Positions 7,797-57,397 are shown, counted from the stretch's first letter. The stretch is DNA of 60,712 nucleotides from Candidatus Nomurabacteria bacterium (GCA_943356415.1 CALREW010000001.1:289900-350611); one strand, 5' to 3'. Numbers and translations: made by a program. Notes: generated by a model not told the origin, from the letters alone.

Positions 7797-7831
7797 ATCG
7801 TAGGCACAACTGTGCCAAAGCGAACGGCCGC

Positions 7832-7918
7832 ACAGTACATGTAAATAACAGTATTGTCAAGTCTTACGTTTATCCAAATTTCTGGAGTACTTGACAAGTT
7901 TAATAGGTGTGATATTGT
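7832..7918. promoter_or_regulatory. Back-to-back divergent sigma70 promoters
   Basis: Minus: TTGACA(7860-7855)-17-TACTGT(7837-7832). Plus: TTGACA(7891-7896)-16-TATTGT(7913-7918) with TG extension, 6 nt before ATG 7925. Confidence 0.75.
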
Positions 7919-7924
7919 CTTGCC

Positions 7925-25263: not shown

Positions 25264-25303
25264 TTTTGCAACCGTTGCATTGTAACTCAAAAGAGACAGC
25301 TGC

Positions 25304-36045: not shown

Positions 36046-36096
36046 ACCTTTATTGTACTGCCTCAAAGGTCAGCACGAGCACAATCTCCACACGCA

Positions 36097-37548: not shown

Positions 37549-39060
37549 TTAGAGACCTCTCCGTGGATCTTCGCAGTAAGGACGGTATTTCTCATCAATG
37601 GTAGGACACACGTTTTGGTACTTCTCAGGTGCATACACAGATTTTGCCGTAGCAAACACCGCACGCACACATCCTATACGCTCATCCTCGGTAAGGGAGG
37701 CTTGCGAGCAGAATCGAAGTGCGATGCGGTACTCATTCCCCACGGTTAATCGCTCAAGAATGCCGGTGGGGATTCCGGTGATGCACGGGTCGACAAGATC
37801 CGACCGAGCACCGTGGCATGCATTAACAATCGATGCAAAAGCATCGGTCGAAAAATCCCTCATTGTAACGCCAAGGACGCGGGAGATCCCCTCCATGGCC
37901 AATCTTGAGTCAATTCGATTTTCGATACGTTCAACAAGGATTATCGACTTAGTGAAATCCGACCCGGTCTGCCTGAACACAGGCAGATTCATCTCGGAGA
38001 GGCATGGGGTTCGTATCCTACTCTCCTTCCAAGATGCACATACGCCATACAGATCGGCAACTGCAAGACGTAGACCGTATGCGTTGTTTATGTACAACAG
38101 GGCAAGAGAATCGAACGCGCCTGAAGCGCATCTGAAGAAATGTGGTTCAGTCGGATCAACACGTTCGCACAGCGCAAGTCCAGGTGCGATAAGTTTCTTT
38201 GGATCTTCCCAATCTCGTGGGTCAGCACCATCGACCGCGCCATGGCCGATTCCGTGATAACAGGCGCCTTCCACATTTCCTGCACCACCAGAGAGCGAAC
38301 GTGCCGCTTCAGCGCAAAAGCGCTTTGCTGCAGCGACATCGCCTGACTCCTGCAACATCGTTTCCATGAACCCATGATAGAACCCGAATCCGCAGTATGA
38401 AGCCTTATCCAAAAGCGGCATTGTCCCCTCCCGTGCAAATATCCGATACGCCGCTTCGCCAAGTGTATGGGCCGATGCGTGACACCAATCAGCGAACGCT
38501 GGATTTGTCTCATAGAGGCGCGACATTTCATTGAGCGCGGCTTCAAGCCCACGGTCAGCGAGTACGCCATTGATATGCTCCGCAAAACATTCGCCCGTGG
38601 GAGCATCCTTGTCCGTACACGTTTTTTGTACAACCGCCCCTCGTTGGTCAAGAACGATTATTTCTCCAACACGGCCAGGAACGAGGTGGTCATGGTATTG
38701 CCACAGACCGGGCGTAATAAACGTAAATGTCCAAGTGTCTCCAGGCGGTACCGGCCTCCTTGGATCAAAAGCGGCATAAATATTGTGCGTGGGATGGGGA
38801 TCAGATGCAGGCCACGCTTCTTTTCCTGTCGCATTCACAAACTGAACAGTGTCTCCCTGCTTTACGACGAGGCGTTGCGGGGAAAAGCCTTCTTCGGTGA
38901 GCGTAACGGTCCTGCCCTCAGAGAGCGTGTACTGGTCACCCGCTGAGAAAAGCGAGCTCCTGATGCCAGAAGCAAAGTAGAGAAGCGCGATGAGGACCGC
39001 TAGTGCACAAATGGAAACTGGGAGAGTCTTTTGCTTCCATATGGAGGAAATCAAGGTCAT
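37549..39060 (-). CDS. Cupredoxin-like domain + Cys/His-motif domain protein (paralogue 1)
   Basis: TM; FSP..L.V..GD.V.F.N, WPASDPHPTH, G.WQYHDH; WCHASAH.LG, CGFGFYHG, CYHGIGHG, CASGAF. Confidence 0.8.
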   Translation of the reverse strand: MTLISSIWKQKTLPVSICALAVLIALLYFASGIRSSLFSAGDQYTLSEGRTVTLTEEGFSPQRLVVKQGDTVQFVNATGKEAWPASDPHPTHNIYAAFDPRRPVPPGDTWTFTFITPGLWQYHDHLVPGRVGEIIVLDQRGAVVQKTCTDKDAPTGECFAEHINGVLADRGLEAALNEMSRLYETNPAFADWCHASAHTLGEAAYRIFAREGTMPLLDKASYCGFGFYHGFMETMLQESGDVAAAKRFCAEAARSLSGGAGNVEGACYHGIGHGAVDGADPRDWEDPKKLIAPGLALCERVDPTEPHFFRCASGAFDSLALLYINNAYGLRLAVADLYGVCASWKESRIRTPCLSEMNLPVFRQTGSDFTKSIILVERIENRIDSRLAMEGISRVLGVTMRDFSTDAFASIVNACHGARSDLVDPCITGIPTGILERLTVGNEYRIALRFCSQASLTEDERIGCVRAVFATAKSVYAPEKYQNVCPTIDEKYRPYCEDPRRGL

Positions 39061-39069
39061 ACAAAATTT

Positions 39070-40284
39070 TCAATTCGACAAGAGCGTACATTTCTTCGCA
39101 TACTCCGGAGGGAGCGCAGCGCACAGTGCTTGTCTACTGGGACTCCCCTCGACGAGATTGAACCGCATCATAGAAAGCAGGTAGGTATAGCAGCCATCTT
39201 GATACTCCGGAGACGCCAGCGCGCAGGCTGCTGACGCATCGGCTCCTTTTGTTCTATCTTCTTCAATAAACGCATTGGCAAGTATGCCGATACACTCAGG
39301 CACTCGTCCTTTCGGCATTTGCTCGCAAAGAGAAACTCGCGCTGAAGGATTACTGATACCGAAACGCGCACCGATACTAAAGACCGTTCGATAGCAGATT
39401 TCTTGTATCTTTGAATCTTTGCTCGATTGGCAGAATGCCTGTGTACCTGTAGCAGTTTGAAGTTCGTCTCTAAAAAGAGGCCAGCCTTCACTGAAGCATT
39501 GCCCTCGCTTTTGTTCAGTGTTGTAGGCAGCACAAAATGTCAGAAGCGTCTCTTTGGTCGGCTTAACGGGCAGTCGTTCGATGAGAGCGTAATCTTCAGG
39601 CTCAAGAGGCTGAAAAATCTGCATAAACACACCCGAGACACACGTTGGCACATACGCTTCTCTTCCCCGTCGTTGTGCGATTGCCCCACAATAATCCGCC
39701 GCCAAAGAGAGGTCTGCGTTCGTTAAGTGGGTCAATACGTGTCCAAGTGCGTGATAACACATAGCGCGATCGAGGTCCGACGGCTCCCACCCTGGAGCTC
39801 GCTCGCACGCTTCTGCGAAGTCGGGAACAATAGCGTCAATCTGCTCCTCGGAGAGGACCGCGTAGTTGAAACGCCCTACGATGATTCCATGAAGAAAACC
39901 ATTTGAGCAGAGACCGTCGGGCGGGTTTCTATGCATCAGGTCAACCCATTGATCCGGATTCTGCTTTACCAAAGCGGCTCCAAGCTCGTGACCGAGCACA
40001 TGGCAAAAACGGTACGAAGTATCTTCACGCTGTAGTGCCCGCACTACTGAAAACACTCCTTCGATAGGACTCACATAGAGGAGAAGCGGCACGTTCTCTT
40101 CGTAACAAAGCGGTTTGTCATTCCTCTCCGCACAATGCGTAACAATGACATGAGCCGCTGCGCGCGCAACACGCGAAGAGAGTCCTGGGAAAGAAGCAAC
40201 GACGACGTACAGAAACGCGCACACACCAAACAAAATGGCGAGTATGGTTCCTATCGTGCGAAGTACAGTGCGAGGTGTTTTCAT
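39070..40284 (-). CDS. Cys/His-motif exported protein (paralogue 2)
   Basis: TM; FCHVLGHELG, CSNGFLHG, CYHALGH, CVSGVFM. Confidence 0.8.
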   Translation of the reverse strand: MKTPRTVLRTIGTILAILFGVCAFLYVVVASFPGLSSRVARAAAHVIVTHCAERNDKPLCYEENVPLLLYVSPIEGVFSVVRALQREDTSYRFCHVLGHELGAALVKQNPDQWVDLMHRNPPDGLCSNGFLHGIIVGRFNYAVLSEEQIDAIVPDFAEACERAPGWEPSDLDRAMCYHALGHVLTHLTNADLSLAADYCGAIAQRRGREAYVPTCVSGVFMQIFQPLEPEDYALIERLPVKPTKETLLTFCAAYNTEQKRGQCFSEGWPLFRDELQTATGTQAFCQSSKDSKIQEICYRTVFSIGARFGISNPSARVSLCEQMPKGRVPECIGILANAFIEEDRTKGADASAACALASPEYQDGCYTYLLSMMRFNLVEGSPSRQALCAALPPEYAKKCTLLSN

Positions 40285-40290
40285 GTGCGT

Positions 40291-41793
40291 CTATTTGGAA
40301 GGGTCAATGCACATAGCTTTCAAATCAGATTCAACCCGGCTACAAATGGCCGCGTGTTTGTCCGCAGAATAAAATGCCTTTTCAGTTGCAAACGCAGCAC
40401 GCATACAAGCTACATGCTCATCATGCGTGAGAGACGACGTGGAACAAAACTCGAATGCTTTTTTGTATTCCTCCCCCGGTACCCCACCCTCATACATACC
40501 TCCAGGGATTCCACTGAGACACGGCACAACAAGGTCACGGCGAGCACTGTGACAGGCAGCAACCGCTGACACAAAGGCGTCTGGAGATGCCGATACTAAT
40601 TGTGCACCAACCACTCCAGCAAGGCTCTGCATAGCCATCGCTGCGTGGGGCATGCCATCAATACGCTCAATAGTCTGTATCGCTTTCTGTAAATCTCGAC
40701 CACTCTGTCGGAATACCGGTATATTCATCTCGTAGTAACACGGGATGCGTATTCGGTCCTCCGACCAACGCTCGCAAATACCGTACAGATCTGCCGTATC
40801 CAGTCGCAGTCCATAGGTATTGCTTATATACATGAGTGCCAGGGAGTTGAATGCCCCCGAAGCACATCTGAAGAAATGCGGTTCAGTTGGGTCAACACGC
40901 TCGCATAGCGCAAGTCCAGGTTCGATAAGTTTCTTTGGATCCTCCCAATCTCGAGGATCGGCTCCATCGACTGCACCGTGCCCAATGCCGTGGAAACACG
41001 CACCTTCGGCATTTTGTGTCTCATTACCGAGTATCTCTTGTGCGTGGGCACAGAAATCACGAGCCTTCCCCACATCTCCCGTTGACTGAAGCATGGCTTC
41101 CATAAATCCGTGATAGAAACCGAATCCGCAATACGACGTCTTCCCGGTAAGCTCCAAAGTGCCATCCTTCTCGTAGATGCGATACGCCTCTTCTCCAAGC
41201 GTGTGACTTACCGAATGGCACGAGTCCTTAAATCCTGGAACTTTCTCATACAGACGCGCCATTTCATTTAACGCAGCTTCAAGCCCCCTTTCTTTAAGAA
41301 CGTCTTTTACATCAGCTTCAAAACAACTGGCAGACTCTCTGTTAGCACTCGTGCATGCAGTTTTTACAACTGCACCTCGATAATCGAGAACGATAATCTC
41401 ACCTGTTTTATCTGATGCAAGATGATCGTGATATTGCCACACGCCGGGATTAGTAAATGTAAACTCCCAAGAACCTCCAGGCGCTATCGGCGCTCTGGGA
41501 TCAAACGCTGGATAAATAGTGTGGTTTGGATGCGAATCGGATGCTGGCCAAAACTCATGCGTCGTCGCGTTGTCGAAGTGAACCGTATCTCCTTGTCTGA
41601 CAACAAGTCGTGCCGGAGAAAAGCCCTCGTCAGTGCGCGTGATAGTTCTCTCTTCAGAAAGCTCGAACCGCTCGTCTGCAACGAAAAGTGAACGAGCCGC
41701 ACCGGAGGTAGCAACAAAAGACAGGAAGAAGGTACATGCAATAATGACCGATGCGATCGTGAGGGGCTTTAGTTTTGAAAATAAATTTTTCAT
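40291..41793 (-). CDS. Cupredoxin-like domain + Cys/His-motif domain protein (paralogue 3)
   Basis: Co-linear with 37549..39060; WPASDSHPNH, YHDH; SCHSVSH.LG, CGFGFYHG, CFHGIGHG. Confidence 0.8.
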   Translation of the reverse strand: MKNLFSKLKPLTIASVIIACTFFLSFVATSGAARSLFVADERFELSEERTITRTDEGFSPARLVVRQGDTVHFDNATTHEFWPASDSHPNHTIYPAFDPRAPIAPGGSWEFTFTNPGVWQYHDHLASDKTGEIIVLDYRGAVVKTACTSANRESASCFEADVKDVLKERGLEAALNEMARLYEKVPGFKDSCHSVSHTLGEEAYRIYEKDGTLELTGKTSYCGFGFYHGFMEAMLQSTGDVGKARDFCAHAQEILGNETQNAEGACFHGIGHGAVDGADPRDWEDPKKLIEPGLALCERVDPTEPHFFRCASGAFNSLALMYISNTYGLRLDTADLYGICERWSEDRIRIPCYYEMNIPVFRQSGRDLQKAIQTIERIDGMPHAAMAMQSLAGVVGAQLVSASPDAFVSAVAACHSARRDLVVPCLSGIPGGMYEGGVPGEEYKKAFEFCSTSSLTHDEHVACMRAAFATEKAFYSADKHAAICSRVESDLKAMCIDPSK

Positions 41794-42869
41794 AACGCAG
41801 GAGGGCGCGCGCCCTTAGGCGAAATGACCACTGCGGCGTGTATATAGAATGCACAATAGTCCTTATCCGCCTGAGGGAGTCCTTCGCATATTGCCATCGC
41901 CTTTGTACGGATGGTGCTCTCGGCAAACGCGCTACTTGCAGCGGCTGCGCGGCATAGCGTTTCTTCGTATTGGCGCGATGCAGCATCCTGACAGAGCGCA
42001 ATAGTCTTCTGCATGTCGTATGCGACCAACATCGGTGCCACGTAGCCAATACCTTCAAAACAAGGTTCTCTCAGCGCTGAGGGTGCGCTCCGACACCACC
42101 TACCCATTTGCGTAAAAATCACCGAGAACGTGACGCCGGGATAGTGCGTCGGTTGCGCCCACCACTGAGGCTGCCAAAATAAACAGACACGCGAATCTTC
42201 CTTAGAGAGCTCGAGACAAGGGAAAAAAGGATCATCTCCAAGCGGTCGGAGTCCTTCGTCACCTGGACCTCGCATCGTGTGCAAGTTGTATTCCATGATG
42301 GCCCCATTGATACAGTCTCCAAGTGGATCGTGGCTAAGTTCTTTGCACGTTGTAAGCGCCTTCTTTAGTCCTTCGACGTTGTAGCCTAGGTACAACTGTA
42401 TCCCGTGGCCAATACCATGGTTGCATCCCACGACATTAACGGCATCGAATGTCTCAAAACATTTTTGACCAAGCGCGGCGATCCCTGAAAGTCCTTGCGC
42501 TTGTATCACATATCCAAAAAGAGAGTGGAAACAGCCATATTGAAACGACGAGTCGCAGACTGCCAACCCATCGATACCCACACGCTCCGAGAGTGCTTCA
42601 CCGAAGAGATGTCCGGCTGCGTGTTGTTGGGGCAGCGTTAAGTTTGCGTAGGCTTGAAGAAATTCTGCGTAGGCTTCAGTGCCACCGAGCCGCTCTATTT
42701 CCCCCATCCAAAATTGATGGCCTCTCGACACTCCCTCTGGCGTTGTTATGTCAGGTGCCACAAAGTGAACGTTGGGAGAACCAATGTAGGGAATCAAAAA
42801 GAATCCAGCTGCGAGCGCTGCAAGTATAAGCGCAGCTACTATCTGTCTTTTCACTTCGCGCCGCGACAT
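41790..42869 (-). CDS. Cys/His-motif exported protein (paralogue 4)
   Basis: TM; QHAAGHLFG, CFHS, CNHGIGHG, CINGAIM. Confidence 0.78.
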   Translation of the reverse strand: MSRREVKRQIVAALILAALAAGFFLIPYIGSPNVHFVAPDITTPEGVSRGHQFWMGEIERLGGTEAYAEFLQAYANLTLPQQHAAGHLFGEALSERVGIDGLAVCDSSFQYGCFHSLFGYVIQAQGLSGIAALGQKCFETFDAVNVVGCNHGIGHGIQLYLGYNVEGLKKALTTCKELSHDPLGDCINGAIMEYNLHTMRGPGDEGLRPLGDDPFFPCLELSKEDSRVCLFWQPQWWAQPTHYPGVTFSVIFTQMGRWCRSAPSALREPCFEGIGYVAPMLVAYDMQKTIALCQDAASRQYEETLCRAAAASSAFAESTIRTKAMAICEGLPQADKDYCAFYIHAAVVISPKGARPPAL

Positions 42870-44101
42870 ATGGTTTGTGCGTCCTCAGGCAAGAGTTTGC
42901 AGAGTGGTTCGCGCTCCTCGCTTTTCGGCGCATATCGAGCCATAAGATGAGCGAGGTCATCGACGCACGCGTCGCCGTATTCTTTATTTTTGTTTGCGAG
43001 TACGTGGCAGTACCTAACCGACACCTGGGGCTCATTCTCTCCACCCCAATAGATGGAATGGAGCACGCTGAGAAGACAAAGCGTGGTGTCATGTTCGTTC
43101 CCTGAAAGGGCACACCACTGCCCCATCCGCTCAAATTCTTCATCGGTGATGGTCACAACGGTTCGCCTATCACTTTGGCGTGCGTAATTGAGTATTTCTT
43201 TTCCAAACGACGCAACACACGTATTTCGATCGGGGTCGTTGGGCGCAAGCACACGGCAGTACGAAAATGCTTTCGGATATACCGCTGGATTTGGACTATT
43301 CATGTCACCACCAGCAACTTCGATAAGGTGCGGAGTTATGTAGCTGTAGCAATAGGTTTTAACTTCAGCAGGCATAAATGCGGCGTCACACGGATAGAGC
43401 GGGTCTGCAGCATACAAATAATGTGGCCGCATCGATGCCCAAATACCAGGATTGTGACCCCCGCCAGAAATGGTCTCCATAACCGCCCCTCCAACACATT
43501 GTCCAAATTCCTGTCGATCATATTCGGCCGTCGCCGTTTTCTTGCACAGAGCGATGGTTTTCTCGAGATTGTAATCGGTGAACGCTAATATGCCGTGACC
43601 AAGCCCATGGAAACACATGGTGTACGCGCCGAGCCCTCCAGGCGCTTTCTTGCATGCGGCCTGTATGTCGTTGGTTGCCGCTTCGCCGTAATCGAGCATG
43701 AGACCGACAACAACGGTGTGCGAACAGGCATTTCGAAATTCGCTCGTACAGTAGGAAATCGCGTCCTTGCCATATTCTTTGTATAGCTGGTCGCCGATAA
43801 CGTGTCCGAGCAAGTGAACATCAGTTTTTGGCGGCAAGTCCACACGTCTCAATATTTCGTAGGCATAGAGCGCCCCTTTTTTTTCTGCGATATCTTGAAA
43901 ATAATCTCTCAGCTCGTTGAAGTCGCGCTGGTGCGATGCGATATCTCGCAATTCCGGATACGCAGTGGCTTTCTTCGTATATGCCACATATCCGTAACTG
44001 AGAAATGCTGCAAGTACTACCAACGTCGCAATAGCCACCACGCGATTATTCGTCACTCGCGCGGTACACGTTAAAAGAAAGTTACTGTATTTCTTCAGCA
44101 T
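42851..44101 (-). CDS. Cys/His-motif exported protein (paralogue 5)
   Basis: Start at MLKK (44101); TM; VHLLGHVIG, CSH, CFHGLGHG, CVGGAVM. Confidence 0.78.
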   Translation of the reverse strand: MLKKYSNFLLTCTARVTNNRVVAIATLVVLAAFLSYGYVAYTKKATAYPELRDIASHQRDFNELRDYFQDIAEKKGALYAYEILRRVDLPPKTDVHLLGHVIGDQLYKEYGKDAISYCTSEFRNACSHTVVVGLMLDYGEAATNDIQAACKKAPGGLGAYTMCFHGLGHGILAFTDYNLEKTIALCKKTATAEYDRQEFGQCVGGAVMETISGGGHNPGIWASMRPHYLYAADPLYPCDAAFMPAEVKTYCYSYITPHLIEVAGGDMNSPNPAVYPKAFSYCRVLAPNDPDRNTCVASFGKEILNYARQSDRRTVVTITDEEFERMGQWCALSGNEHDTTLCLLSVLHSIYWGGENEPQVSVRYCHVLANKNKEYGDACVDDLAHLMARYAPKSEEREPLCKLLPEDAQTICRGAK

Positions 44102-44168
44102 AAAAGGCAGACGGGATTTAGTATGCCAGAGGCACAACGCCCCGCCTACGTATCGTATACTAAGATAC

Positions 44169-44573
44169 ATGCCAGCCGCGCTTGCGCTACTTGTCACGAT
44201 TGGGTTTGCTGCAGGTGCAGGGGCAGCGCTCTACGCATCACCCCTTATCGAGGAAGGAAGCAGCTACTCAACGTGGGTCCTCGGGTCACGTTCAAATCTC
44301 CTGTCCCTAGGCGGAAGTGTGGAAGCAATCGGGGATAATTTTTTTGTACTGAAAGAAGAAGGTGGCGATATGCGCATCCATATGGCCTATGACGCGCAAA
44401 CGCTCTCCCTTGCCTTATCTGAAAAAGAGGAATCCGGCGTCATAACCGGCACGCGACTCTTGGTTGTCCCGCCGCAAGAATACTTACAAACAGGAGCGCT
44501 TGTGCGAATCGTACTGCGCTCGACACCAGAGACGAGCGCACCGTACGCGGCACTTATTACCCTAACACCCTGA
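44169..44573 (+). CDS. Small exported beta-rich protein (DUF5666/OB-like, tentative)
   Basis: Signal/TM; G.V..IGDNFF.L...T...G..V.I pattern; TATACT 7 nt upstream. Confidence 0.65.
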   Translation: MPAALALLVTIGFAAGAGAALYASPLIEEGSSYSTWVLGSRSNLLSLGGSVEAIGDNFFVLKEEGGDMRIHMAYDAQTLSLALSEKEESGVITGTRLLVVPPQEYLQTGALVRIVLRSTPETSAPYAALITLTP

Positions 44574-44574
44574 T

Positions 44575-45042: not shown

Positions 45043-45047
45043 GTGAC

Positions 45048-46328
45048 TTATCGTGCGATATGCAGACGCTTTCGTTTGTTGAAATTCGGCATTCGCGTTT
45101 GCGCCTCAGAAAGTAGCTCAACGGTAAGCGGTGCAACGAGTCCTTTTTCGACAAGATCAGCGTAGGTATGTATGGAACTTACCTTGAGCGCAGCCGCGAG
45201 CGTAGAAGCGCTGTTGTGAATTGAAGCGTCGGTATACAGCGTGATACTAAGAGAAGGCAATGTTCCATTGTCCTGCCACAGCGCACTGAAATCGAAAACT
45301 GGGTGAGGTAACGAGTAAACCGCCTCTTCTAAAGCAGCAACGCTTATCCCTCCGAGCGGCACCTTGACCTTATCGAGCGTAGCCCGCCCGAGTATTTCCA
45401 TAAGTGGCTCTGTGCTTCCGCAGACACACGGTACAACCTGGTGGACAACCGCATAGTCACCAGTCCGGTAGCGAATAAGCGGAAATCCCATAGGCACAAG
45501 CGCAGTGAGTACCATCTCGCCTTCCACCCCTGCATCAATTTCAAGCAACGCTCCAGTCTCAGGATCAATAAGTTCGATGGCGTACGTTGAGAATGGGTGG
45601 ATATGGTTGGGAGCCTCCCTCAAGCGCTTCGGGCACGTATGCGCGGCCATACCTTGCGATTCAGTAGAGGCGTACATGGTGGCTATTTGCGCTCGCGGAA
45701 ACGCGTCCGCTATCTTATTGCGCTGCAGAGCCGTAAGACGTTCCCCCAGCAGAAGGATGAACCGTATGTTCTCCCGCAAGGACGAGGCTTCAAAGTGTGG
45801 CAATATGCTTACCAAAGGCGACGGGAATGAAAAGATGGAGTCAGTCTTAGCCTCTTCACCTAGGCGGACAGAAAGTTCTGGATCATGAAAATCACCGACG
45901 ACAACCGGCATGCCGTCTGTTGCTTGCAAATGCGCCTCGTGGATAACGCTCGCAGCGGAAAACATGAGCAACGAGTAAGGATCTTCTTTCTTAAAATACG
46001 GACCAAAATAGCGACCGGCGAGGTCCGAGTCCTCGTTAAATCCGACCGATTGCCGATAGCGCATAAGTTCGGGTTCCTCAAGGACCGGAAAACCTATCAC
46101 GCGTCTTCCTGACGACCCAGACGTTGCTCGAACAAAACGCATCATTTCTCGCGGGACAAACACACGATCGAAGAATGGCGTGGCGTCAATCTCCTCTCGC
46201 GTGAGAAGTGGTATGGAAGGAAGTGGTCTTTCAATGATCCTCGCATAATCCGTGCCGTACTTGCGTCGGTAAAAATCCGAATACGGATTATTGATCGCAA
46301 AGGAAAGTATCTGCGAAAGCTTTCTCAT
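45048..46328 (-). CDS. PaaK/coenzyme F390 synthetase-like adenylate-forming (ANL) enzyme, copy A
   Basis: FYRRKY, TSGSSG P-loop, YASTE, GEMVLT, LIRYRTGD, GR hinge. Confidence 0.88.
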   Translation of the reverse strand: MRKLSQILSFAINNPYSDFYRRKYGTDYARIIERPLPSIPLLTREEIDATPFFDRVFVPREMMRFVRATSGSSGRRVIGFPVLEEPELMRYRQSVGFNEDSDLAGRYFGPYFKKEDPYSLLMFSAASVIHEAHLQATDGMPVVVGDFHDPELSVRLGEEAKTDSIFSFPSPLVSILPHFEASSLRENIRFILLLGERLTALQRNKIADAFPRAQIATMYASTESQGMAAHTCPKRLREAPNHIHPFSTYAIELIDPETGALLEIDAGVEGEMVLTALVPMGFPLIRYRTGDYAVVHQVVPCVCGSTEPLMEILGRATLDKVKVPLGGISVAALEEAVYSLPHPVFDFSALWQDNGTLPSLSITLYTDASIHNSASTLAAALKVSSIHTYADLVEKGLVAPLTVELLSEAQTRMPNFNKRKRLHIAR

Positions 46329-46777: not shown

Positions 46778-46793
46778 TCTCTCTATCTATGTG

Positions 46794-46982
46794 CTAATAG
46801 ATTCCTCCGCACCAGATCTGATATACCCTATTAAATTTTTCTGCGTGCACTTCTTCTCCACTCGTCATTACTCCAAGCTCTGGATCGGTACAGTTAAGAA
46901 GCTGTTCTTGTTTTGTGGGAAAAGAACCCAATCCAACAATCGAAAAAAGGAGAGCAACTGCCGTGAGTACTTTCTTTTGCAT
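46794..46982 (-). CDS. Small exported peptide, copy A (62 aa, ends RVYQIWCGGIY)
   Basis: Hydrophobic N-terminus, LGSF, L.CT.PE and C-terminal CGGIY are conserved with 59174..59371; TATACT 9 nt upstream. Confidence 0.8.
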   Translation of the reverse strand: MQKKVLTAVALLFSIVGLGSFPTKQEQLLNCTDPELGVMTSGEEVHAEKFNRVYQIWCGGIY

Positions 46983-47067
46983 GTGTATTTCTAGTATACA
47001 GAAAGTGCTCACTCCTATCTACTTACCGATTCTTTCCGCCAGGACAGAGCATCGGTATACTTCGCTC

Positions 47068-49874: not shown

Positions 49875-49931
49875 GTCGACAGTATATCCCTCAGACACAG
49901 CAGCGGGCTCTTTAGTATACTCAGGGACGAA

Positions 49932-51668
49932 ATGAAGGCGACGTACGCCATGCTGGGGTTTCTTGCGATTGTCAGCTTTGCCGTTGCAACGTACGGAATA
50001 GTGAGCCAAGCGCGTTTTTTTCCTTCTGCAATCACATCCAATCCAAAGGATCGTCTTGCTCAGTATGTCGAAGCACATCGACTTGACCCAATATTTGCAT
50101 TCCCGGGCATTGATGTCGAAGCAATGCGACAAGTGGTAAAAGAATTCACGATAAGTGCCCGCGTCGCCATGCCGCCGTACAATAATCAGGAGGCGATACG
50201 GGAATCGCTTTTCCCTTTTCAATTTCTTGCAGCCGTAGCAGACGCAGAGGAAGCCCGCGTCAAGCTTTTTGCGGAGCCTAGTCGTGAACATGCTGATGTC
50301 TATCACCGCTCACTTATGCATCTCATGGAAAACTACAAGGAGGATAGCTCCCACGCGCGCGATATCTTAGAACACGCAAGCACGACAACTCGCATATTCT
50401 TTTTCATCGGAGAGACGAGCCCCGCGCGCATCAAAACCGTACTCGCCGAGGCGGAGGTGCACGCGAATGCCCTTATGGAAAAAGAGGAGCGGCGTTTTGA
50501 TTGTCTTTTGGGTTTAGCCGCACAATGCGAGTCAATCGATTCTCTTATCCTTCAATTTGGCGATATGAGCACCGGGACACGTTTGGATACTTTGCCGACT
50601 GAGAAACTCACTAAAGTCGCCGAGGAAAATTTCAGCACCCTTGCCGCACTCAACTCACAACTTGCGTCAAGCACCCTCGTCGAACTCTCTCATTCTGCCT
50701 GCTATCCGAGCGCGCCTACCTACTACGCAGTAACAACAAAGATATCGAGGCTCTCCGGTCTTCCCTCTGCTGATATCACGTACCTCAACGATCTGTACTT
50801 CTACGATCTCAAGCGTACAAGCAAGCAACCGTACTTTGACGAGCTACAAAAGGCAGGGGCGCAGTACTCATACCAACCATTTAACGCGTATCTTTGTCTT
50901 GATGCTGGGGAAGATATGGGACGTTTAATGACCATTATCCATACGCGCATATCTCTCGCTCACACTCCTTTGAAGGCCCGAGGCGGTTACATTCCACCGT
51001 TGATTAAAGAGGTACTAGAAGCGCAAGAACAATTCCTCGCAGGGACTACCGTGCGCTCAGATGCCTACGATAGGTTGATACGCAACGCATCCCTTGCCGT
51101 ACGAACGTATGGAATGACCGGTGTGTCTTCATATTTTTCTGATGCCACCGCAGGGGAACAACTCGTCGACTTGGTTATACTCTCGAGAACTCAAAGTGCT
51201 GATTTCGAGAAAATAGTCGCCTATTTTGACGACCTGCAAGTAGGAACATTCCTCCCCTATCATTTCAATCCCTCTCCTCTGTATGCGTTCCTCATGACGC
51301 GCGGTGGCCTCTCTCCGCTGCTTGCACTTGAAAACCGAACCGGCGCTCTACCCCAGGCGCTCTCACTTTTGGAGACCAATGTGCCACACAAGAACCCGTA
51401 TGCCTATATGCACATAAGCCTACGCTCTTATGAAAACGACCTTCACGCGACACGTGCGCGTGGCACGCTGATACAGACCCTCCTTGACGAACGTCGCGCG
51501 CACGACAAAGCATTCGGGTTGCTCATAAGCGATCTACAAATTGCACGACAATCGTATAAAAAAATGCTTGAAACATGCGGCGGGTCCGTGGCACTACATA
51601 CTGAAGAATCACCTATCCGACGAATCTGGAATATGACATGCACTCCAGCTCCCACACCTGGCTCTTAG
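49932..51668 (+). CDS. Large membrane-anchored hypothetical protein (paralogue X2)
   Basis: Co-linear homology with 47068..48669; N-terminal TM. Confidence 0.8.
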   Translation: MKATYAMLGFLAIVSFAVATYGIVSQARFFPSAITSNPKDRLAQYVEAHRLDPIFAFPGIDVEAMRQVVKEFTISARVAMPPYNNQEAIRESLFPFQFLAAVADAEEARVKLFAEPSREHADVYHRSLMHLMENYKEDSSHARDILEHASTTTRIFFFIGETSPARIKTVLAEAEVHANALMEKEERRFDCLLGLAAQCESIDSLILQFGDMSTGTRLDTLPTEKLTKVAEENFSTLAALNSQLASSTLVELSHSACYPSAPTYYAVTTKISRLSGLPSADITYLNDLYFYDLKRTSKQPYFDELQKAGAQYSYQPFNAYLCLDAGEDMGRLMTIIHTRISLAHTPLKARGGYIPPLIKEVLEAQEQFLAGTTVRSDAYDRLIRNASLAVRTYGMTGVSSYFSDATAGEQLVDLVILSRTQSADFEKIVAYFDDLQVGTFLPYHFNPSPLYAFLMTRGGLSPLLALENRTGALPQALSLLETNVPHKNPYAYMHISLRSYENDLHATRARGTLIQTLLDERRAHDKAFGLLISDLQIARQSYKKMLETCGGSVALHTEESPIRRIWNMTCTPAPTPGS

Positions 51669-52876
51669 TTCAGAATCTCTTTTGTGCCCGCACAATACTG
51701 GTATTCTTCCGAATCTGACTTTGTAAACATAAGACACTTCTCTGCGCGTTTGCCTGGGTACCACCGCGCTAAATCTTCTCCAGAAAGAGCGAGACATACT
51801 GCTTTATCTTTCTCCGGAGCGGCATTGCAAAGGTCGGCATATCCCTGCACGTCTCCTCCCGTTGCAAATCCTTTGAATATGGTCGCTTGCTCAAAGCACG
51901 ACTCGCGGTCTTCAGCTCTCTCAATGCCGGAGCACACCGATGCAACGTACGTCATATCATCTGAGAGCAGCACCGCCTGCGCTCCAAATGTTCCATAACA
52001 ATCTGTCCTGAACGCAGGCGGTATACGGTTGCAAAAGAGACTCGTCTTCGCATAGTCAGCTCGCGATTGCTGCAGCACGAATGTGGAGCGCGACGCGTAG
52101 CATTGATGCTGGTACTTTGCCGCAAGTTCCGTACACGGATATTCAGGGTTGTCTTTGTCGACCGTTGAGTTTCCCTTACCTCCGTTAAATGAAAACGTGT
52201 CCTCCATAAAAACCCCCGTATAGCAAATACCCTGGTCGTGCGTATCGGCAATGTAATCGCAAAAAGGGAGCGCCTTAGCAATGTCATTATTGGTTTGAAG
52301 CATGGCGGCGTGACCAAGCCCATGGATGCACGCATCGTACGTGACACGATTCCCCGCTTCCTCTTCCTTGCACGCATTTTGAATCACCTCCTTAGTCACC
52401 GCTCCCCCATGCGCTTGAAGATATCCTTCGAGCGTCCCGTGGAAGCACCCCTCACCGCAGGCAATGTCGGTCGAGCACGCAAGGAAACTCTGAGAGATAC
52501 TGCCTGTCTTTTTAAACTCACGCTGTCCGAGTACATGCCCAAACGCATGACACCAACCGCGTATTTGCGGTTCATCTTGTATCTCAGCGAGGCCTTTAAG
52601 TGCAGCGGGCAATTCAAAATGGGCAGTCACCCGATTTCCTAATTCCTGATAACAATCACTGCGCCATACATTGTCACGGTATTCCTCGGTGCCGTAACAC
52701 GTAAGAAATTCAGTACGCAGATATGACGCAACACTTTCAAATGGAAACGGGTTCCGTAAACCATATTTGCCAAACAGTTGGCTGTAGAGAAAAAATGGAC
52801 CAAGGATACAAAGAAAAATTCCCGCGAGAATAAGATTCCTTTTCTGTGTTCGCACAAACAAACGCAGCGTGTGCAT
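51665..52876 (-). CDS. Cys/His-motif exported protein (paralogue 7)
   Basis: TM; WCHAFGHVLG, CGEGCFHG, CIHGLGH, CYTGVFM. Confidence 0.8.
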   Translation of the reverse strand: MHTLRLFVRTQKRNLILAGIFLCILGPFFLYSQLFGKYGLRNPFPFESVASYLRTEFLTCYGTEEYRDNVWRSDCYQELGNRVTAHFELPAALKGLAEIQDEPQIRGWCHAFGHVLGQREFKKTGSISQSFLACSTDIACGEGCFHGTLEGYLQAHGGAVTKEVIQNACKEEEAGNRVTYDACIHGLGHAAMLQTNNDIAKALPFCDYIADTHDQGICYTGVFMEDTFSFNGGKGNSTVDKDNPEYPCTELAAKYQHQCYASRSTFVLQQSRADYAKTSLFCNRIPPAFRTDCYGTFGAQAVLLSDDMTYVASVCSGIERAEDRESCFEQATIFKGFATGGDVQGYADLCNAAPEKDKAVCLALSGEDLARWYPGKRAEKCLMFTKSDSEEYQYCAGTKEILN

Positions 52877-52885
52877 GGCTTAGCA

Positions 52886-53641
52886 CTATCTACCGAACAA
52901 ACCATTGATAAGACTGACAAACGGCAGTCCGAAAGAACCGGTGCCCACATCTGCGACGGGCGCGTAGAGGTACGACCCCCTATCAACAAGCGCGTCCTTG
53001 CCTTTAGCAACCTCAACAACAATTGGATGTGCCAAAATGTAAGGGTCATGGCGTGTGCCAGTTACTTGCCACGAAACCGTGCCGCCTGCTACTCCACCTG
53101 CAACGCGGAAGCGATTATCTTTCACGCCATCGCGAATATAGAGATTCGGCATGGGCTGACCTATCGGTTTTAATTGATAGCGAAAATCTTTATTGAGCGC
53201 TTCAAAGTATGCCGGCAGCTGCACTACTGCTTCACCAGCGTTATCGAGCTTCGCCACACCATCGTACATATTTTTTACATCAGGACTCTCCACGAACGAG
53301 TGATACAGCAGTTTGTTTGCAGGGTCGAGTGGATGGTCGATGACGAACGTTCCGCTACCTTTAGAAATATTTCCAGTGACGTTAAAGTTGAGCGCCGCGG
53401 TCGCATTTTGTGTAAACGTAAGTTGATACGACGGCTGATAATAGCTCTGGTAATACCCCTGGTAGTAGCCTTGGTAGTACCCCTGGTAATACCCCTGGTA
53501 ATAGCCTTCGTAATACCCTTGGCCATAACAAGTGCCACCTCCTCCACCGGCAAATGCCGCCACCGGAAGCAAGAGCCCGCCTGAAAGCATCGCAGCCAAA
53601 AGGCGTAGCACGTGTCGCTTAGTGTTTTTCATAGCCTTCAT
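52886..53641 (-). CDS. Exported FVIDHPLDP-domain protein with N-terminal Gly5 and (YYQG)n tract
   Basis: Signal peptide ending AFA|GGGGG; seven YYx[G/S/P] units; FVIDHPLDPANKLLYHSFVESPDVKN.YDG; start may be 53632. Confidence 0.8.
   Translation of the reverse strand: MKAMKNTKRHVLRLLAAMLSGGLLLPVAAFAGGGGGTCYGQGYYEGYYQGYYQGYYQGYYQGYYQSYYQPSYQLTFTQNATAALNFNVTGNISKGSGTFVIDHPLDPANKLLYHSFVESPDVKNMYDGVAKLDNAGEAVVQLPAYFEALNKDFRYQLKPIGQPMPNLYIRDGVKDNRFRVAGGVAGGTVSWQVTGTRHDPYILAHPIVVEVAKGKDALVDRGSYLYAPVADVGTGSFGLPFVSLINGLFGR
53252..53353. repeat. 102-bp exact direct repeat, copy 1 (copy 2 at 53934..54035; 51-bp core also at 54549..54599)
   Basis: Base-by-base identity checked by eye; encodes GTFVIDHPLDPANKLLYHSFVESPDVKNMYDGVA. 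Confidence 0.9.
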
Positions 53642-54179
53642 AGAGGTACGCTCCTTTTTTCACGAGTGCATCTTCACCTTTATCGACTTCCACACGAGTA
53701 TCAATTTGCAGAATAGCAGGGTCGTGACGATTGCCCGTTATCTGCCACGATACACGGTTTCCTGGTGTACCGCCGGCAATAACAAAACGATTTTTCGTAA
53801 CATCTGCACCTTCCTTCAGATACAAGTTCGGATCTGCGCTATCGAGCGGAAAAAATTGATACCTGAAATCTTTGTTAAGTGCATCGAAGTATGGTGGCAG
53901 CGAAATAATTACTTCGCCTTTCGCATCAACAAGCGCCACACCATCGTACATATTTTTTACATCAGGACTCTCCACGAACGAGTGATACAGCAGTTTGTTT
54001 GCAGGGTCGAGTGGATGGTCGATGACGAACGTTCCTGTGGTTTTCGTCAACGTCCCAGATATGGAAAGGCTCCCACTAAAGCGTGTTCCTACGGTGATGG
54101 TGACCGCAGTCACGGCCACCGGCGTAATAAGAAGCGCGAAAGTGGCAAGCCCGGTGATAATCTGTTGTTTATTTACCAT
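53619..54179 (-). CDS. Exported FVIDHPLDP-domain protein (paralogue 2)
   Basis: Signal peptide; same domain (SWQITG.RHD). Confidence 0.82.
   Translation of the reverse strand: MVNKQQIITGLATFALLITPVAVTAVTITVGTRFSGSLSISGTLTKTTGTFVIDHPLDPANKLLYHSFVESPDVKNMYDGVALVDAKGEVIISLPPYFDALNKDFRYQFFPLDSADPNLYLKEGADVTKNRFVIAGGTPGNRVSWQITGNRHDPAILQIDTRVEVDKGEDALVKKGAYLYEGYEKH
53934..54035. repeat. 102-bp exact direct repeat, copy 2
   Basis: Identical to 53252..53353. Confidence 0.9.
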
Positions 54180-54744
54180 AGGCTTCAGGCGTCAGATATT
54201 CTCCCTTCTTTACCGGCGTTGAATCGTCCTTGGTCACTTCAGTCACGATAGGGTTATCCATAATGAACTTGTCATGGCGGATTCCCGTTATCTGCCAGGA
54301 GACCGAACCCCCTGCCACTCCACCGGTAATTGTAAATCGTATGGGTCCAAACAACCCGAACCAGCGACGATGCACTTCTTTTTTAAGATGGAGATTCGGC
54401 ATGGGCTGCCCGATAGGCGTCGCGAGGTAACGGAAATCTTTGTTAAGTGCTAAAAAATATGATGGGAGCGGTATCTCTGCCTCGCCGTTTTCATCAAGCT
54501 CAATAATCCCATCGTAAATATTTTTAACGTCAGGGCTTTCTACAAAAAAGTGATACAGCAGTTTGTTTGCAGGGTCGAGTGGATGGTCGATGACGAACGA
54601 TCCGGCAACCTTTGAGAGAGCCCCGACGACGTTGGTGCCCTGTATAGCGACCGTTGAGTTAAAGGTAACCGCGTCTACCACCGTTGCCGACACCCCCCAC
54701 AAGAGGAGTGCCCCGAACGCCGCCACAAACCCTCGCTTCAACAT
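54169..54744 (-). CDS. Exported FVIDHPLDP-domain protein (paralogue 3)
   Basis: Signal peptide; same domain; TG-extended TATCCT 6 nt upstream. Confidence 0.82.
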   Translation of the reverse strand: MLKRGFVAAFGALLLWGVSATVVDAVTFNSTVAIQGTNVVGALSKVAGSFVIDHPLDPANKLLYHFFVESPDVKNIYDGIIELDENGEAEIPLPSYFLALNKDFRYLATPIGQPMPNLHLKKEVHRRWFGLFGPIRFTITGGVAGGSVSWQITGIRHDKFIMDNPIVTEVTKDDSTPVKKGEYLTPEAYGK

Positions 54745-54766
54745 ACCTGCAGGATACCACAGCGTC

Positions 54767-56245
54767 TTATTTCCTTTCTAGACCGACTCGTAAATCCTTT
54801 GCTTCAGCATACGCGGGCCTCAATTGAAGCGCCTCGTCAAGCATCTTCTTCGCTTCGGGACGCTTCCGAGCCAAGATGTACAGCTGGGCTGCAAAAAAAC
54901 GAGCTGACGGATCACTTGGAGATCGTGCAATCGCTTGATTGAACGCTTCGACACCCGACTGGAGAAGTTCCTTGTCTGGCTTCATGGCGTATCTCTCTGC
55001 AATGGTAATACCTAGCATTTTCCAGTTCTGCGCGTTGTATGGGTCGCGAGCGGCAATATCTTTTGCAACAAGAAAGGCGTCATGGAAGAGCGGTGAGACC
55101 GCATCGACCGTAGCGTTATGTTGGGACAGCTCGCGCGCTTCAGCGCGGAGAATCTGAGCGTACAATCGCCCCGCTCGGGAGTTGGCATCCATTCCGTACG
55201 AGAGCTGCATTCTGACCCGAGCGTTTGGAAGATCGCCAGTTGCCGCCGTTGAAAATGCACTGACGTACAGAATCGTCGCAAAAAGAAAGTACACAGTGCC
55301 CGCTGCACCTATGTAGAAGAAGATAGTTGCGCCTCGCGCTACGTATGGATGTGGTACGAGGGTGTGAGAAGAAATTCGTTTGCATGTGCCGAGTACGACA
55401 AAAGAAAGGAGAACGACGGCTACTGAAGGTTCTGCAAATGCGAGGGATGCTACCGACACCAGAAGGAGTACGGGCCCCAGCAAAGCCGAGAGGCGATGCA
55501 TGTGTGTAGACGTGCGCCAACGAGTAATACCATCCACGGTCGTCTCAGCAAACACGGCGAAGAATGCAACGACCAGTAGAAAGGTGCCAAGCAACCCTAT
55601 TTCAATAACGAGCGTCGGTAGTATGCCGGAGCCGGTGGTAAAATCTTCACTCCAGAAAGGCGTGAGATTCACGCTCTGCGGCCGATACTGCTGCCACGCG
55701 CGCACAAACGCGCCCGGACTCTCACCGACCAACAACGCGCGTGTGCCGTGTTCAAAAAAGAAACTCGACGCAATAGACGTCGTCATCGACAACGAAGGAC
55801 GGACGTGTGGAATCGTTCGTAAATATGGAACGGAAACGATACCGATAAGGAGCGTGCCCGCTACAACAAGAAGTGCGCGTCGTGGGATATCCGGGAGCGC
55901 ACTACACACCCAGGAGAGCGCCGCGCATAGTAGGAGCATGAACGCTGAAGTCATATCAAAAGCGAGACTTGAAAATACTTCCGCAATACTGCCGGAACAT
56001 GCCGCGGAGACAACAACAATCACACAAAACAGAAAGAGGCTCGCCTGTGCAAACGACGTCTTTCTCACGTCAGGCACGTATCCACGACGTATTGACCAGA
56101 TAAAAAGAGAAATACCGCACAAAAAAAGAGCTGCCGCGGCAACGCTCTCAGCTGCCGGACCCTCCACAAAAAGAGAAACGGCCACGTAGACGGCGGCCGG
56201 AACAAGACATATACCAAGTGCAGCGTATGGAACAACCTTGCTCAT
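54767..56245 (-). CDS. Multi-TM protein with C-terminal TPR-like repeats (O-antigen-ligase-like, tentative)
   Basis: About 10 TM helices; G.SPG.F...W..Y.P..VN.T.FW and E.G.LG motifs; TPR-like tail; start at MSKV (56245). Confidence 0.7.
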   Translation of the reverse strand: MSKVVPYAALGICLVPAAVYVAVSLFVEGPAAESVAAAALFLCGISLFIWSIRRGYVPDVRKTSFAQASLFLFCVIVVVSAACSGSIAEVFSSLAFDMTSAFMLLLCAALSWVCSALPDIPRRALLVVAGTLLIGIVSVPYLRTIPHVRPSLSMTTSIASSFFFEHGTRALLVGESPGAFVRAWQQYRPQSVNLTPFWSEDFTTGSGILPTLVIEIGLLGTFLLVVAFFAVFAETTVDGITRWRTSTHMHRLSALLGPVLLLVSVASLAFAEPSVAVVLLSFVVLGTCKRISSHTLVPHPYVARGATIFFYIGAAGTVYFLFATILYVSAFSTAATGDLPNARVRMQLSYGMDANSRAGRLYAQILRAEARELSQHNATVDAVSPLFHDAFLVAKDIAARDPYNAQNWKMLGITIAERYAMKPDKELLQSGVEAFNQAIARSPSDPSARFFAAQLYILARKRPEAKKMLDEALQLRPAYAEAKDLRVGLERK

Positions 56246-56287
56246 TGCCTTCACAGTATACGGTACTGAAAAACTCTCGGAGGCCGT

Positions 56288-57397
56288 TTAGTGTTGAACG
56301 TTGATAGCTTCGCAACGCTTGGTGAGTTCCTTTTGCAGCGTCTTACAAAAATCCTTTTTTTGAGCCGCCTTCCCCGCAAATCCTCGCTTTACCGCAGTAG
56401 CTACATTGAGGAGGCATTGTTCTTCAAACGGTCCCGCCGTCGCGCATCGTTTATGCATTGTATCGAAATCGGTTCCACTATCGGTGATAGAAATAGATGC
56501 GACTTGTTCTCGACACGAGAAGGCATTCTCTGCTACATCGAGTTTGGCGCACGCTGCAAAGGCGCCGGCAAAATCCCCTCGGTGAGTGTTGAGGTAAGAG
56601 CGTCCAACAAAAAGTGAACATTCGGTCTTAAAAACCGTAAGTCCATTGCACAGCGAGAGCATGCTGTCCCCTTCCTGCTGTTTCGGCAATTTCAGTGAAT
56701 TGATGTAATCAACGCTATAGAGATAGCTCTTCTCCATGAGTGCTCCGTACGCACATCGACCACGCATCCATTCGTATGGCAGCCGCGAACAGATAGGAAG
56801 CACATCACTTACCTTGTTCTCATAGGCATACATAAGGCCGTGACCTACCGCATGGAAACACTGCATATTTGCCGTCCAGGAAAAATCTTCCGTCATCGGG
56901 TTCGTCGGCACCCAGTGGTCGGCACAACTTTCATGAATGAGTTGGTCAATCGGCGTACGACTTCTCTCTACTTTGAAATATTCCATCAGGAGCCCGTGCT
57001 GAAAACCTTCGTAGGTAAGGTAGTTGGCATACGTTGGCGCTTCAGGCGGCAACGTGTCCATCGCCGCTTTGCGAGAACCAAGCTGGTCATAGGCTTGCAT
57101 GCCGACCATGTGCATCGCGAGATGCGCGGTGTTGCGGTTGTATGGAGCTACTACTTCAGCGGTATAGCGAATTGCGCCAATAACATCACCGCTCATCGCG
57201 ATATAGTGCGCTTTATCACGCATACACACGCGAACATTCTCCTCTGAAAAACACGAGTCTTTGGGACTCAGGTAGAACACGACGTCCGCGCGATACACGT
57301 ACAGCACGATGGCACCAAGTACACCAAACGCGACGAGTGCAGCGCGTACATCACGCTTTGCCAACATAGAGAGGAGCCATTGCTTGGCGTGTTTCAT
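56288..57397 (-). CDS. Cys/His-motif exported protein (paralogue 8)
   Basis: TM; AHLAMHMVG, EGFQHG, CFHAVGHG, CAYGALM. Confidence 0.78.
   Translation of the reverse strand: MKHAKQWLLSMLAKRDVRAALVAFGVLGAIVLYVYRADVVFYLSPKDSCFSEENVRVCMRDKAHYIAMSGDVIGAIRYTAEVVAPYNRNTAHLAMHMVGMQAYDQLGSRKAAMDTLPPEAPTYANYLTYEGFQHGLLMEYFKVERSRTPIDQLIHESCADHWVPTNPMTEDFSWTANMQCFHAVGHGLMYAYENKVSDVLPICSRLPYEWMRGRCAYGALMEKSYLYSVDYINSLKLPKQQEGDSMLSLCNGLTVFKTECSLFVGRSYLNTHRGDFAGAFAACAKLDVAENAFSCREQVASISITDSGTDFDTMHKRCATAGPFEEQCLLNVATAVKRGFAGKAAQKKDFCKTLQKELTKRCEAINVQH

Follow-up and report, generated by a model that had tools for sequence, protein, structure and literature searches.

Type 3 copper proteins, such as tyrosinase, catechol oxidase, and hemocyanin, bind their metal in helical, all-histidine sites, in which an HxxxH pair is joined by a third histidine from a neighboring helix, and EfeO combines a cupredoxin domain with a helical, M75-like metal-binding domain. 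The Hcp proteins, which are cysteine-rich Sel1-like proteins of Helicobacter, consist of extracytoplasmic helical-hairpin repeats, each of which is stapled by a disulfide. Deoxyhypusine hydroxylase (DOHH) is built from HEAT repeats and carries His-Glu motifs (PMC9117371, PMC3306375). An N-terminal histidine chelates transition metals whatever the fold that bears it, and permease-attached proteins with such a histidine are known under the name "anglerase" (PMC12537917). The copper protein YcnI of Bacillus subtilis, which comprises a signal peptide, an N-terminal His, a beta-sandwich, and a C-terminal membrane helix, uses His27, Glu50, and Trp137 (PMC8424229) and exchanges Cu(II) with YcnJ (PMC8424229, PMC12362106). 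Here we describe a stretch of 60,712 nucleotides from a "Candidatus Nomurabacteria" bacterium (GCA_943356415.1, CALREW010000001.1:289900-350611; referred to as the window) that encodes eight paralogues, A to H, of a family of helical repeat proteins with five almost invariant histidines. Judged from sequence and predicted structure, there is an even chance that these membrane-anchored, outward-facing, disulfide-stapled solenoids make up a metal-binding five-His system of the Patescibacteria.

Family membership and topology

Eight paralogous open reading frames (ORFs) had been claimed in a sequence-only reading of the window, and all eight were present, all on the minus strand, in a 19.8-kb span in which unrelated genes are interspersed among them (Table 1). 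A family hidden Markov model matched exactly these eight ORFs (E values of 9e-103 to 2e-124) and nothing else in the window, so that their paralogy is not due to chance. Their MAFFT alignment covered ~370 columns at 17 to 22% identity, with the exception of A and C, which were 59% identical to each other. The mechanically called ORFs overcall the starts of E and F.

The columns that were invariant in the alignment of the eight paralogues included, in the numbering of A, H194, H198, G201, H229, C249, C267, H269, G272, and H273, along with C298, C311, G314, C341, C415, C426, C464, C485, and C496. Searches with regular expressions recovered (C)HxxxHxxG and CxH[GA][ILV]GH, which the sequence-only reading had placed in every copy, from 8/8 proteins and in the same order. 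The third motif said to occur in all eight, CxxG[AVI][FIVL]M, was found in six, whereas A and C carry D or N in place of its M. CxxGxxH had been called usual; its His was in fact invariant in all eight proteins, but its Cys was missing in D, E, and H, the three paralogues that lacked the Cys of both the first and the second motifs. The CxxCH motif by which heme is attached in c-type cytochromes was absent, as had been stated (0/8).

In every paralogue (8/8), basic residues at the N terminus lead into one hydrophobic helix, which predicts a type II-anchored protein with its domain outside the cell. The earlier description of the proteins as exported needs correction in this respect, as the N-terminal helix is a membrane anchor that is not obviously cleaved.

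Scans of all eight proteins matched no Pfam or NCBIfam model to the helical domain and returned only weak Cupredoxin_1 matches on A and C. A scan against PHROGs gave nothing, and the family profile found chance matches only among PDB sequences (e.g., Vpr, E value of 0.16). With the AlphaFold2 model of B as the query, Foldseek retrieved from the PDB only generic solenoids of the ARM, HEAT, and importin types (best E value of 1e-2, template modeling [TM] score of at most 0.28) and retrieved nothing from BFVD. Neither by annotation nor by structure did the family find a relative in these resources, which bears out the novelty proposed for it.

Table 1. Positions of the His5 paralogues, their domains, and neighboring genes in the window (strand in parentheses; aa, amino acids)
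Feature	Position (strand)	Length	Loci (of 81)	Remarks
Fatty-acid desaturase	24232-25461 (-)			PF00487, E value of 2e-33
Array continuation	34993-36066 (-)			
Array continuation, Ig-like surface protein	36097-36996 (-)			
Partner p	37003-37530 (-)	175 aa		Signal peptide ending ...A-S-G before H, beta-sandwich of ~110 aa, C-terminal membrane helix, basic tail
Paralogue A	37549-39060 (-)	503 aa		Anchor, cupredoxin domain, His5 helical domain; position 221 is Asp
Cupredoxin domain of A	~38641-38928 (-)			H89, H92, H123, D124, H125 invariant
Paralogue B	39070-40284 (-)	404 aa		Reference protein for the model; His/Met cluster encoded at ~39622-40005
Paralogue C	40291-41793 (-)	500 aa		Anchor, cupredoxin domain (~41377-41664), His5 domain; position 221 is Asn
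Paralogue D	41790-42869 (-)	359 aa		Second array gene; overlaps E by 19 nucleotides
Paralogue E	42851-44197 (-), mechanical ORF	448 aa		Likely start at 44101 (MLKKYS...); first array gene; Met class at position 221; lacks the C94/C126-equivalent Cys pair
PaaK/CapK-like AMP-binding ligases	45048-46328 (-), 57407-58699 (-)		18	Weak PF00501
561-aa family	46915-48669 (+), 49932-51668 (+)		21	No known domain
Paralogue F	48663-50306 (-), mechanical ORF	547 aa		Likely start at 49904 (MKVNPRR...); B-like; outside core array
Paralogue G	51665-52876 (-)	403 aa		Outside core array
Secreted family with "IDHPLDP" domain	52886-54744 (-), three copies	190-250 aa	19	Within 10 kb of array
Tyr-rich member of secreted family	52886-53641	251 aa		N-terminal low-complexity YYQGYYQG run, conserved ~150-aa C-terminal domain
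Multipass membrane protein	54767-56254 (-)			C-terminal TPR; adjoins paralogue H
Paralogue H	56288-57397 (-)	369 aa		Most divergent copy; lacks the C94/C126-equivalent Cys pair
Tail-fiber-like protein	59417-60637 (-)		14	"GNVGIGTxTP" repeats, weak phrog_9942 match; runs off the window end

Repeat fold and disulfide staples

The AlphaFold2 model of B, computed with 51 sequences, is all-helical, with ~22 helices, at a predicted local distance difference test (pLDDT) score of 94.8 and a predicted TM score of 0.90; together with the model of A, it supports the helical nature that had been proposed for the family. The domain is made of tandem hairpin repeats in which helix A ends in a Cys, a loop of 10 to 15 residues follows, and helix B opens with a Cys. 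Repeats R4 to R9 are mutually homologous as judged by hhalign (95.9% for R7-R9, 91.9% for R7-R8, and 89.6% for R6-R7), and the homology of the His-bearing repeats R1 to R3 has diverged past detection by the same method.

Pairing of the cysteines was followed through 725 unique, near-full-length domains, which were drawn from the window, 83 fetched loci, and ~380 database proteins. In this set, 608 domains had both C94 and C126 (B numbering, as used hereafter for the helical domain), 100 had neither, and 17 had one of the two; the corresponding counts for C285 and C297 were 434, 284, and 7. The pairs C94-C126, C51-C60, C320-C331, and C285-C297 were also among the strongest couplings in a direct-coupling analysis (DCA) of the 725 domains. 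The joint presence and absence of the cysteines and their couplings back the disulfide pairing suspected earlier and indicate that these residues are staples and unlikely to be metal ligands. DsbA-like genes recur near the arrays, and disulfide staples fit an extracytoplasmic location as well as the occurrence of such genes near several arrays.

The histidine cluster

Five histidines were each conserved in 99.0 to 99.3% of the 725 domains: H95 and H99 on helix B1, H132 on helix B2, and H178 and H182 on helix B3. G181 and G218 were conserved in at least 99%, and the mean column identity in a 42-sequence alignment of the family was 26%. A further position of the cluster, 221 on helix B4, was Met in 422 cupredoxin-free domains; in the A/C clade, it was Asn, Thr, or Asp. 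A C-x2-G-x2-[H/M] pattern is common to helices B2, B3, and B4 and places ligand-type residues at equivalent positions of consecutive repeats.

The DCA linked successive B helices in parallel register, from B1 to B2 (103-137, 106-134, and C94-C126), from B2 to B3 (127-175 and 136-179), and from B3 to B4 (171, 174, and 175 with 214, and 186-222), and thereby supports the adjacency of the helices, although it cannot speak for invariant columns. When the residues were placed by the helix boundaries of the AlphaFold2 model, H99, H132, H182, and residue 221 fell at one depth and H95 and H178 one turn above. In the model, this is the placement that one extended site, or two adjacent three-ligand sites, would need. 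The couplings 130-221 and 98-217 give a hint of a tighter bundle.

In the arrangement that we favor, the B helices of repeats 1 to 4 would bring H95 and H99, H132, H178 and H182, and residue 221 (Met or Asn) next to one another, and the resulting cluster would bind one or two transition-metal ions. The cluster may be split into a site of three His (H95, H99, and H132) beside a site of two His plus Met (H178, H182, and M221), and the C-terminal repeats would form a scaffold or a surface for the binding of a substrate or partner. From the sequence data, metal binding by the family is an evenly balanced proposition. Copper would be the best guess for the metal, but this is a tentative assignment for which the balance tips the other way, and a defined oxidase activity is less probable again. 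The dinuclear oxidase that had been proposed for the family may be one option among several.

Cupredoxin domain of the A/C class

PF13473 (Cupredoxin_1) gave a weak match on C (E value of 1.3e-4), was also found on A, and is precomputed in many homologues; the N-domain of A and C, in addition, had a weak sequence match to plastocyanin (E value of 7e-4). The AlphaFold2 model of A has a pLDDT of 87.5, which drops below 50 at residues 89 to 96, the HPTH loop. Foldseek matched the N-domain of this model to 5fc9, the purple cupredoxin of Nitrosopumilus (E value of 3e-5, TM score of 0.78), and to dozens of plastocyanins and amicyanins and the copper-bound Cupredoxin_1 protein 4hcf of Bacillus anthracis, at TM scores of 0.6 to 0.78. 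On the evidence of the model, the N-domain of the A/C class is a true cupredoxin fold.

Residues P84, A85, S86, H89, P90, H92, D99, H123, D124, and H125 of this domain were invariant in 37 diverse homologues. The His-Cys-His-Met ligand set of type 1 blue copper is not present in the A/C cupredoxin domain: in an alignment to plastocyanin, the type 1 Cys is deleted and the position of the Met ligand is occupied by Arg in A, so that the site, if there is one, would be His-rich and type 2-like.

A partner protein with a predicted N-terminal histidine

The core array is followed by a gene for a small partner protein, p, whose signal peptide cleavage site was predicted by eye, not with SignalP. Residues H25, S30, D41, G43, W75, and G96 are invariant in p, and A24, at position -1, is nearly so, with Ala or Gly conserved there; an invariant H25 directly after a conserved Ala or Gly predicts that mature p begins with His. 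The p family was present in 39 of 84 sources (the window and the 83 fetched loci, with three duplicates among them). In the 80 loci that remained after de-duplication, p stood directly after a B-type gene in 24 of 36 copies and after a C-type gene in 8 of 36. The p domain has faint similarity to Ig, filamin, or PKD domains only; a homologue search with p returned p itself as the sole match, and none of 29 p members scanned at an E value of ≤0.5 matched DUF1775.

The N-terminal His of p could capture or deliver metal, and the cupredoxin domain of the A/C class would bring a His4Asp site of its own. It is on the circumstantial grounds of the A/C cupredoxin fusion and of p with its predicted N-terminal His that copper is favored over other metals.

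The same two features can be read as signs of metal handling without catalysis, with p and the tethered solenoids picking up Cu, Ni, Zn, or Fe on the cell surface and passing it on, in the manner of EfeO or of a YcnI/CopC relay. In both A and C, Cupredoxin_1 precedes an all-helical domain with His motifs, as in EfeO, p has the layout of YcnI, a protein in Cu(II) exchange with YcnJ, and the permease-attached anglerases offer a precedent for a metal-binding N-terminal His (PMC12537917). However, no permease or ATPase is conserved beside the array, a Pfam scan of the eight proteins gave no Peptidase_M75 match, and it would be hard to explain why uptake needs four or more distinct orthogroups. We consider this account quite unlikely.

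Distribution

A profile search for the family collected 7,673 representative clusters (50% identity) at an E value of ≤1e-3, of which 2,559 remained at ≤1e-30. Homologue searches gave 460 matches for B and 172 for A, all of them unnamed or "hypothetical" except for a few A-type homologues that were named plastocyanin or cupredoxin domain-containing. The sources that were named belonged to the Patescibacteria, namely, Adler-, Kaiser-, Nomura-, Taylor-, Sung-, Giovannoni-, Doudna-, and Spechtbacteria and Minisyncoccia. A genome scan with a B-type alignment located 79 distinct loci, nearly all labeled as Patescibacteria, to which the family is apparently restricted; the few metagenome-assembled contigs with other taxon labels are suspected to be binning or labeling errors. 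Literature searches for cupredoxins, copper, or cysteine-rich families in the Patescibacteria returned nothing on this family.

Database "proteins" of 1,200 to 3,580 amino acids (P0241 to P0247, P0254, and P0264) contain three to seven complete copies of the domain, the largest being P0241, with 3,580 amino acids and seven matched stretches. Such giant multidomain entries probably represent neighboring paralogues that were merged by gene calling across stops.

The window itself was found in lake and freshwater metagenomes and is syntenic with Adlerbacteria contigs. No RNA runs contained the locus, and a promoter scan of the window performed no better than one of shuffled sequence.

Gene order and orthogroups

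Loci around a B-type gene contained 1 to 14 family members per ~20 kb, with a maximum of 14 copies in 21 kb. For typing, 422 members were assigned to the best-scoring paralogue of the window; for those of E type, the median score was 340 bits with E and 64 bits with the second-best paralogue. The order E, D, a variable number of A/C (and F), and then B, often with p behind it, was conserved across the 80 de-duplicated loci, which represent many lineages of the Patescibacteria. E-type genes were present in 59/80 loci, D in 54/80, A/C in 59/80, and B in 76/80, all of which are lower bounds, as many contigs are short. E usually opened the array, and for 37 of the 62 E genes, the gene directly behind was D. 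The core array of the window runs E-D-C-B-A-p, with junctions of -19, -4, +6, +9, and +18 nucleotides, and the locus has F, G, and H as additional copies outside it.

These data do not bear out the suggestion that the paralogues differ in substrate; they are, instead, distinct, old orthogroups in a fixed gene order, which argues for components that work together and not for interchangeable variants. We infer that the orthogroups act together, and E, D, A/C, and B would accordingly be expected to operate as a set.

The array runs on, across gaps of 6 and 30 nucleotides, into the gene for an Ig-like surface protein and from there into genes for GAPDH and ribulose-phosphate epimerase and split transketolase genes, a synteny that is shared with an Adlerbacteria locus (L001). 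The GC content at 4000 to 8000 of the window is ~0.61, compared with ~0.51 elsewhere in the window.

Neighboring genes and the cell envelope

The recurrence of neighboring genes was counted across 81 loci (Table 1). In the window, the 561-residue family without a known domain is represented by two paralogues of ~580 residues, both with an N-terminal membrane helix; the first is convergent with F and the second with G, with a slight overlap at the stops of these His5 paralogues. A truncated form of 263 residues, related to the PaaK-like ligases, occurred in seven loci. Among the database proteins were two single fusions, the 813-residue P0365, in which Wzy_C (O-antigen ligase) is joined to a His5 domain, and P0379, with an esterase domain; both are candidate fusions or read-through calls. 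In a Doudnabacteria locus, the array lies among carbamoyltransferase, GDSL-like, and glycosyltransferase genes. The theme of the array neighborhood is the cell envelope.

This setting invites an explanation in which the proteins are noncatalytic surface scaffolds or adhesins of the envelope or of host attachment and in which the His cluster is structural, serving as a hydrogen-bonded ladder, a structural Zn site, or a pH sensor. The sole fold matches of the domain are to protein-binding solenoids of the ARM, HEAT, TPR, and Sel1 types, an expansion as strong as 14 copies in 21 kb is typical of episymbiont surface proteins, and the neighbors are envelope genes, for an Ig-like surface protein, a tail-fiber-like protein, a multispanning membrane protein with TPR, glycosyltransferases, and the one Wzy_C fusion. 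A scaffold would not, however, be expected to keep five His at ≥99%, together with their flanking Gly, across paralogues that are only 17 to 20% identical, a conservation much stricter than such a role predicts. The orthogroups are also stable and in fixed order, with no fast-diverging variants, and the cupredoxin fusion and the predicted N-terminal His of the partner suggest metal chemistry. Considering both sides, we regard a purely structural role as unlikely.

Tyrosine-rich secreted proteins

Three tandem secreted paralogues of the window share a "FVIDHPLDPxNKLLYH...VESPDVKN.YDG" domain, which went unmatched in Pfam, PHROG, and the PDB. The (YYQG)n run is confined to the third gene, and the two adjacent paralogues without it share the C-terminal domain. 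In the family as a whole, a YYQ/YYSQ-rich segment was found in 16 of 44 members, which represent several lineages, and the gene that encodes it is typically the last of a triplet. The sequence-only reading had taken the Tyr-containing sequences for peptides that might be substrates of the His5 proteins, in analogy to ribosomally synthesized and posttranslationally modified peptides (RiPPs), but the segment belongs to a secreted protein of 251 residues with a folded domain. There were no precursor-like short genes, and no RiPP maturation family was found among the neighbors scanned with Pfam.

A different oxidative role can be framed around the same proteins. If the paralogues were tyrosinase-like or other copper oxidases, their His5(Met) centers would convert Tyr of the YYQG segment (of the YYQGYYQGYYQG peptide type) to 3,4-dihydroxyphenylalanine (DOPA), quinone, or dityrosine, which would give rise to a cross-linked material for adhesion or for the envelope instead of a RiPP. 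In type 3 copper sites, the CuB half likewise draws its ligands from an HxxxH pair and one more His of the following helix, and three His plus two His and Met make up the ligand inventory of peptidylglycine alpha-hydroxylating monooxygenase. In 19/81 loci, the YYQG-bearing gene family is no more than 10 kb away from the array, with a Tyr-rich segment in 16/44 members, the sample came from lake water, and the genome encodes an O2-dependent fatty-acid desaturase (Table 1), from which it follows that the organism sees oxygen, a point that bears on the plausibility of any O2-dependent activity. On the other hand, the family has no likeness in sequence or fold to tyrosinase, hemocyanin, BURP, or DUF3328, and there are five His rather than six. 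Most loci do not show the linkage to the Tyr-rich genes, which may be due to synteny between lineages that are related, and the Tyr-rich proteins, at ~250 residues and with a folded domain, are not RiPP precursors. A tyrosine-directed oxidase acting on a protein substrate is possible but weakly supported, and as a full explanation of the family it is very unlikely.

A broader proposal would combine E, D, A/C, B, and p into a previously unknown extracellular copper redox system, with a pair of copper sites (three His and two His/Met) on the solenoids that would match the ligand inventory of the peptidylglycine monooxygenase on a new fold, and that would oxidize tyrosines of the colocated YYQG-repeat secreted proteins or polymers of the host surface. 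In such a system, electrons or copper would come from the cupredoxin class and from p with its N-terminal His, and the oxidation of tyrosine or polymer would build or breach the attachment interface. We give this proposal only a slim chance.

Evidence against a metal site and significance of the family

Several observations weigh against the five-His cluster as a metal center, and against copper in particular. Position 221, which is Met in 61% and Asn in 31% of the 725 domains, is not conserved as a ligand, and the couplings 130-221, 133-220, and 98-217 may be subfamily signatures rather than contacts. No invariant carboxylate accompanies the five His in the 725 domains, which would be unusual for Fe or Zn sites. 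The similarity of p to YcnI is architectural only, and the conserved gene order may partly reflect the shared ancestry of the sampled lineages. The 60.7-kb window contained no copper transporter or pump, chaperone, or regulator. Finally, many Patescibacteria live without oxygen, which counts against a strictly O2-dependent oxidase.

The Patescibacteria account for much of the diversity of bacteria and live attached to other microbes, and the function of most of their surface proteins is unknown. The family described here is one of their large expansions and keeps a fixed operon order across many lineages. If its five-His cluster is a metal center, the family would add a metalloprotein fold not seen before, and an extracellular metal or redox system likewise new, to organisms whose redox metabolism is regarded as almost nil; if it is a scaffold instead, it would still be a defining component of the envelope that merits a family entry. 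The ectodomains are small and confidently predicted, which makes the hypothesis directly testable.

Comparison with known systems

Tyrosinase, hemocyanin, DOHH, Hcp, EfeO, lipoxygenase, zinc phospholipase C/P1 nuclease, and HD domains were each considered as identities for the helical domain and dropped, as none was among the Foldseek matches and their ligand sets differ. The analogy to the copper-dependent peptide cyclases of the BURP and DUF3328 families likewise lacked support; none of the eight proteins had a Pfam match to them at an E value of ≤1, and a RiPP context was lacking.

Type 3 copper proteins have six His (three each for CuA and CuB) on a four-helix bundle, whereas the present family has five His and Met or Asn on a solenoid; the Tyrosinase and Hemocyanin models of Pfam did not match, nor did Foldseek retrieve these proteins. 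The Hcp proteins lack the His cluster; Sel1 had no Pfam match in the eight proteins, Hcp was not among the PDB Foldseek matches, and repeats R4 to R9 are homologous to one another only. With EfeO, A and C share the domain order, in which Cupredoxin_1 is followed by an all-helical domain with metal-type motifs, and the location outside the cytoplasm, but they have neither a Peptidase_M75 match nor the HxxE motif, and EfeU or EfeB partners are not encoded in the window.

The layout of p equals that of YcnI and the DUF1775 (mono-histidine-brace) proteins, including the predicted His-1 and the C-terminal tether, and its invariant His/Asp/Trp trio is reminiscent of His27, Glu50, and Trp137 of YcnI. 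Nonetheless, p is smaller, the spacing of its conserved residues differs, and DUF1775 does not match it. The N-domain of A and C has its fold in common with plastocyanin, amicyanin, 5fc9, and 4hcf, with a His4Asp set in place of their type 1 ligands.

DOHH, a di-iron enzyme, differs from the His5 family in having four His-Glu pairs, a cytosolic location, and no disulfides, and the family, for its part, has no conserved Glu next to His; HEAT had no Pfam match in the eight proteins, and DOHH was not among the Foldseek matches. In DOHH, however, a solenoid of helical hairpins forms its metal center from ligands at equivalent positions of successive repeats, an arrangement that the His5 cluster would resemble and that makes DOHH its best precedent among solenoid metalloenzymes.

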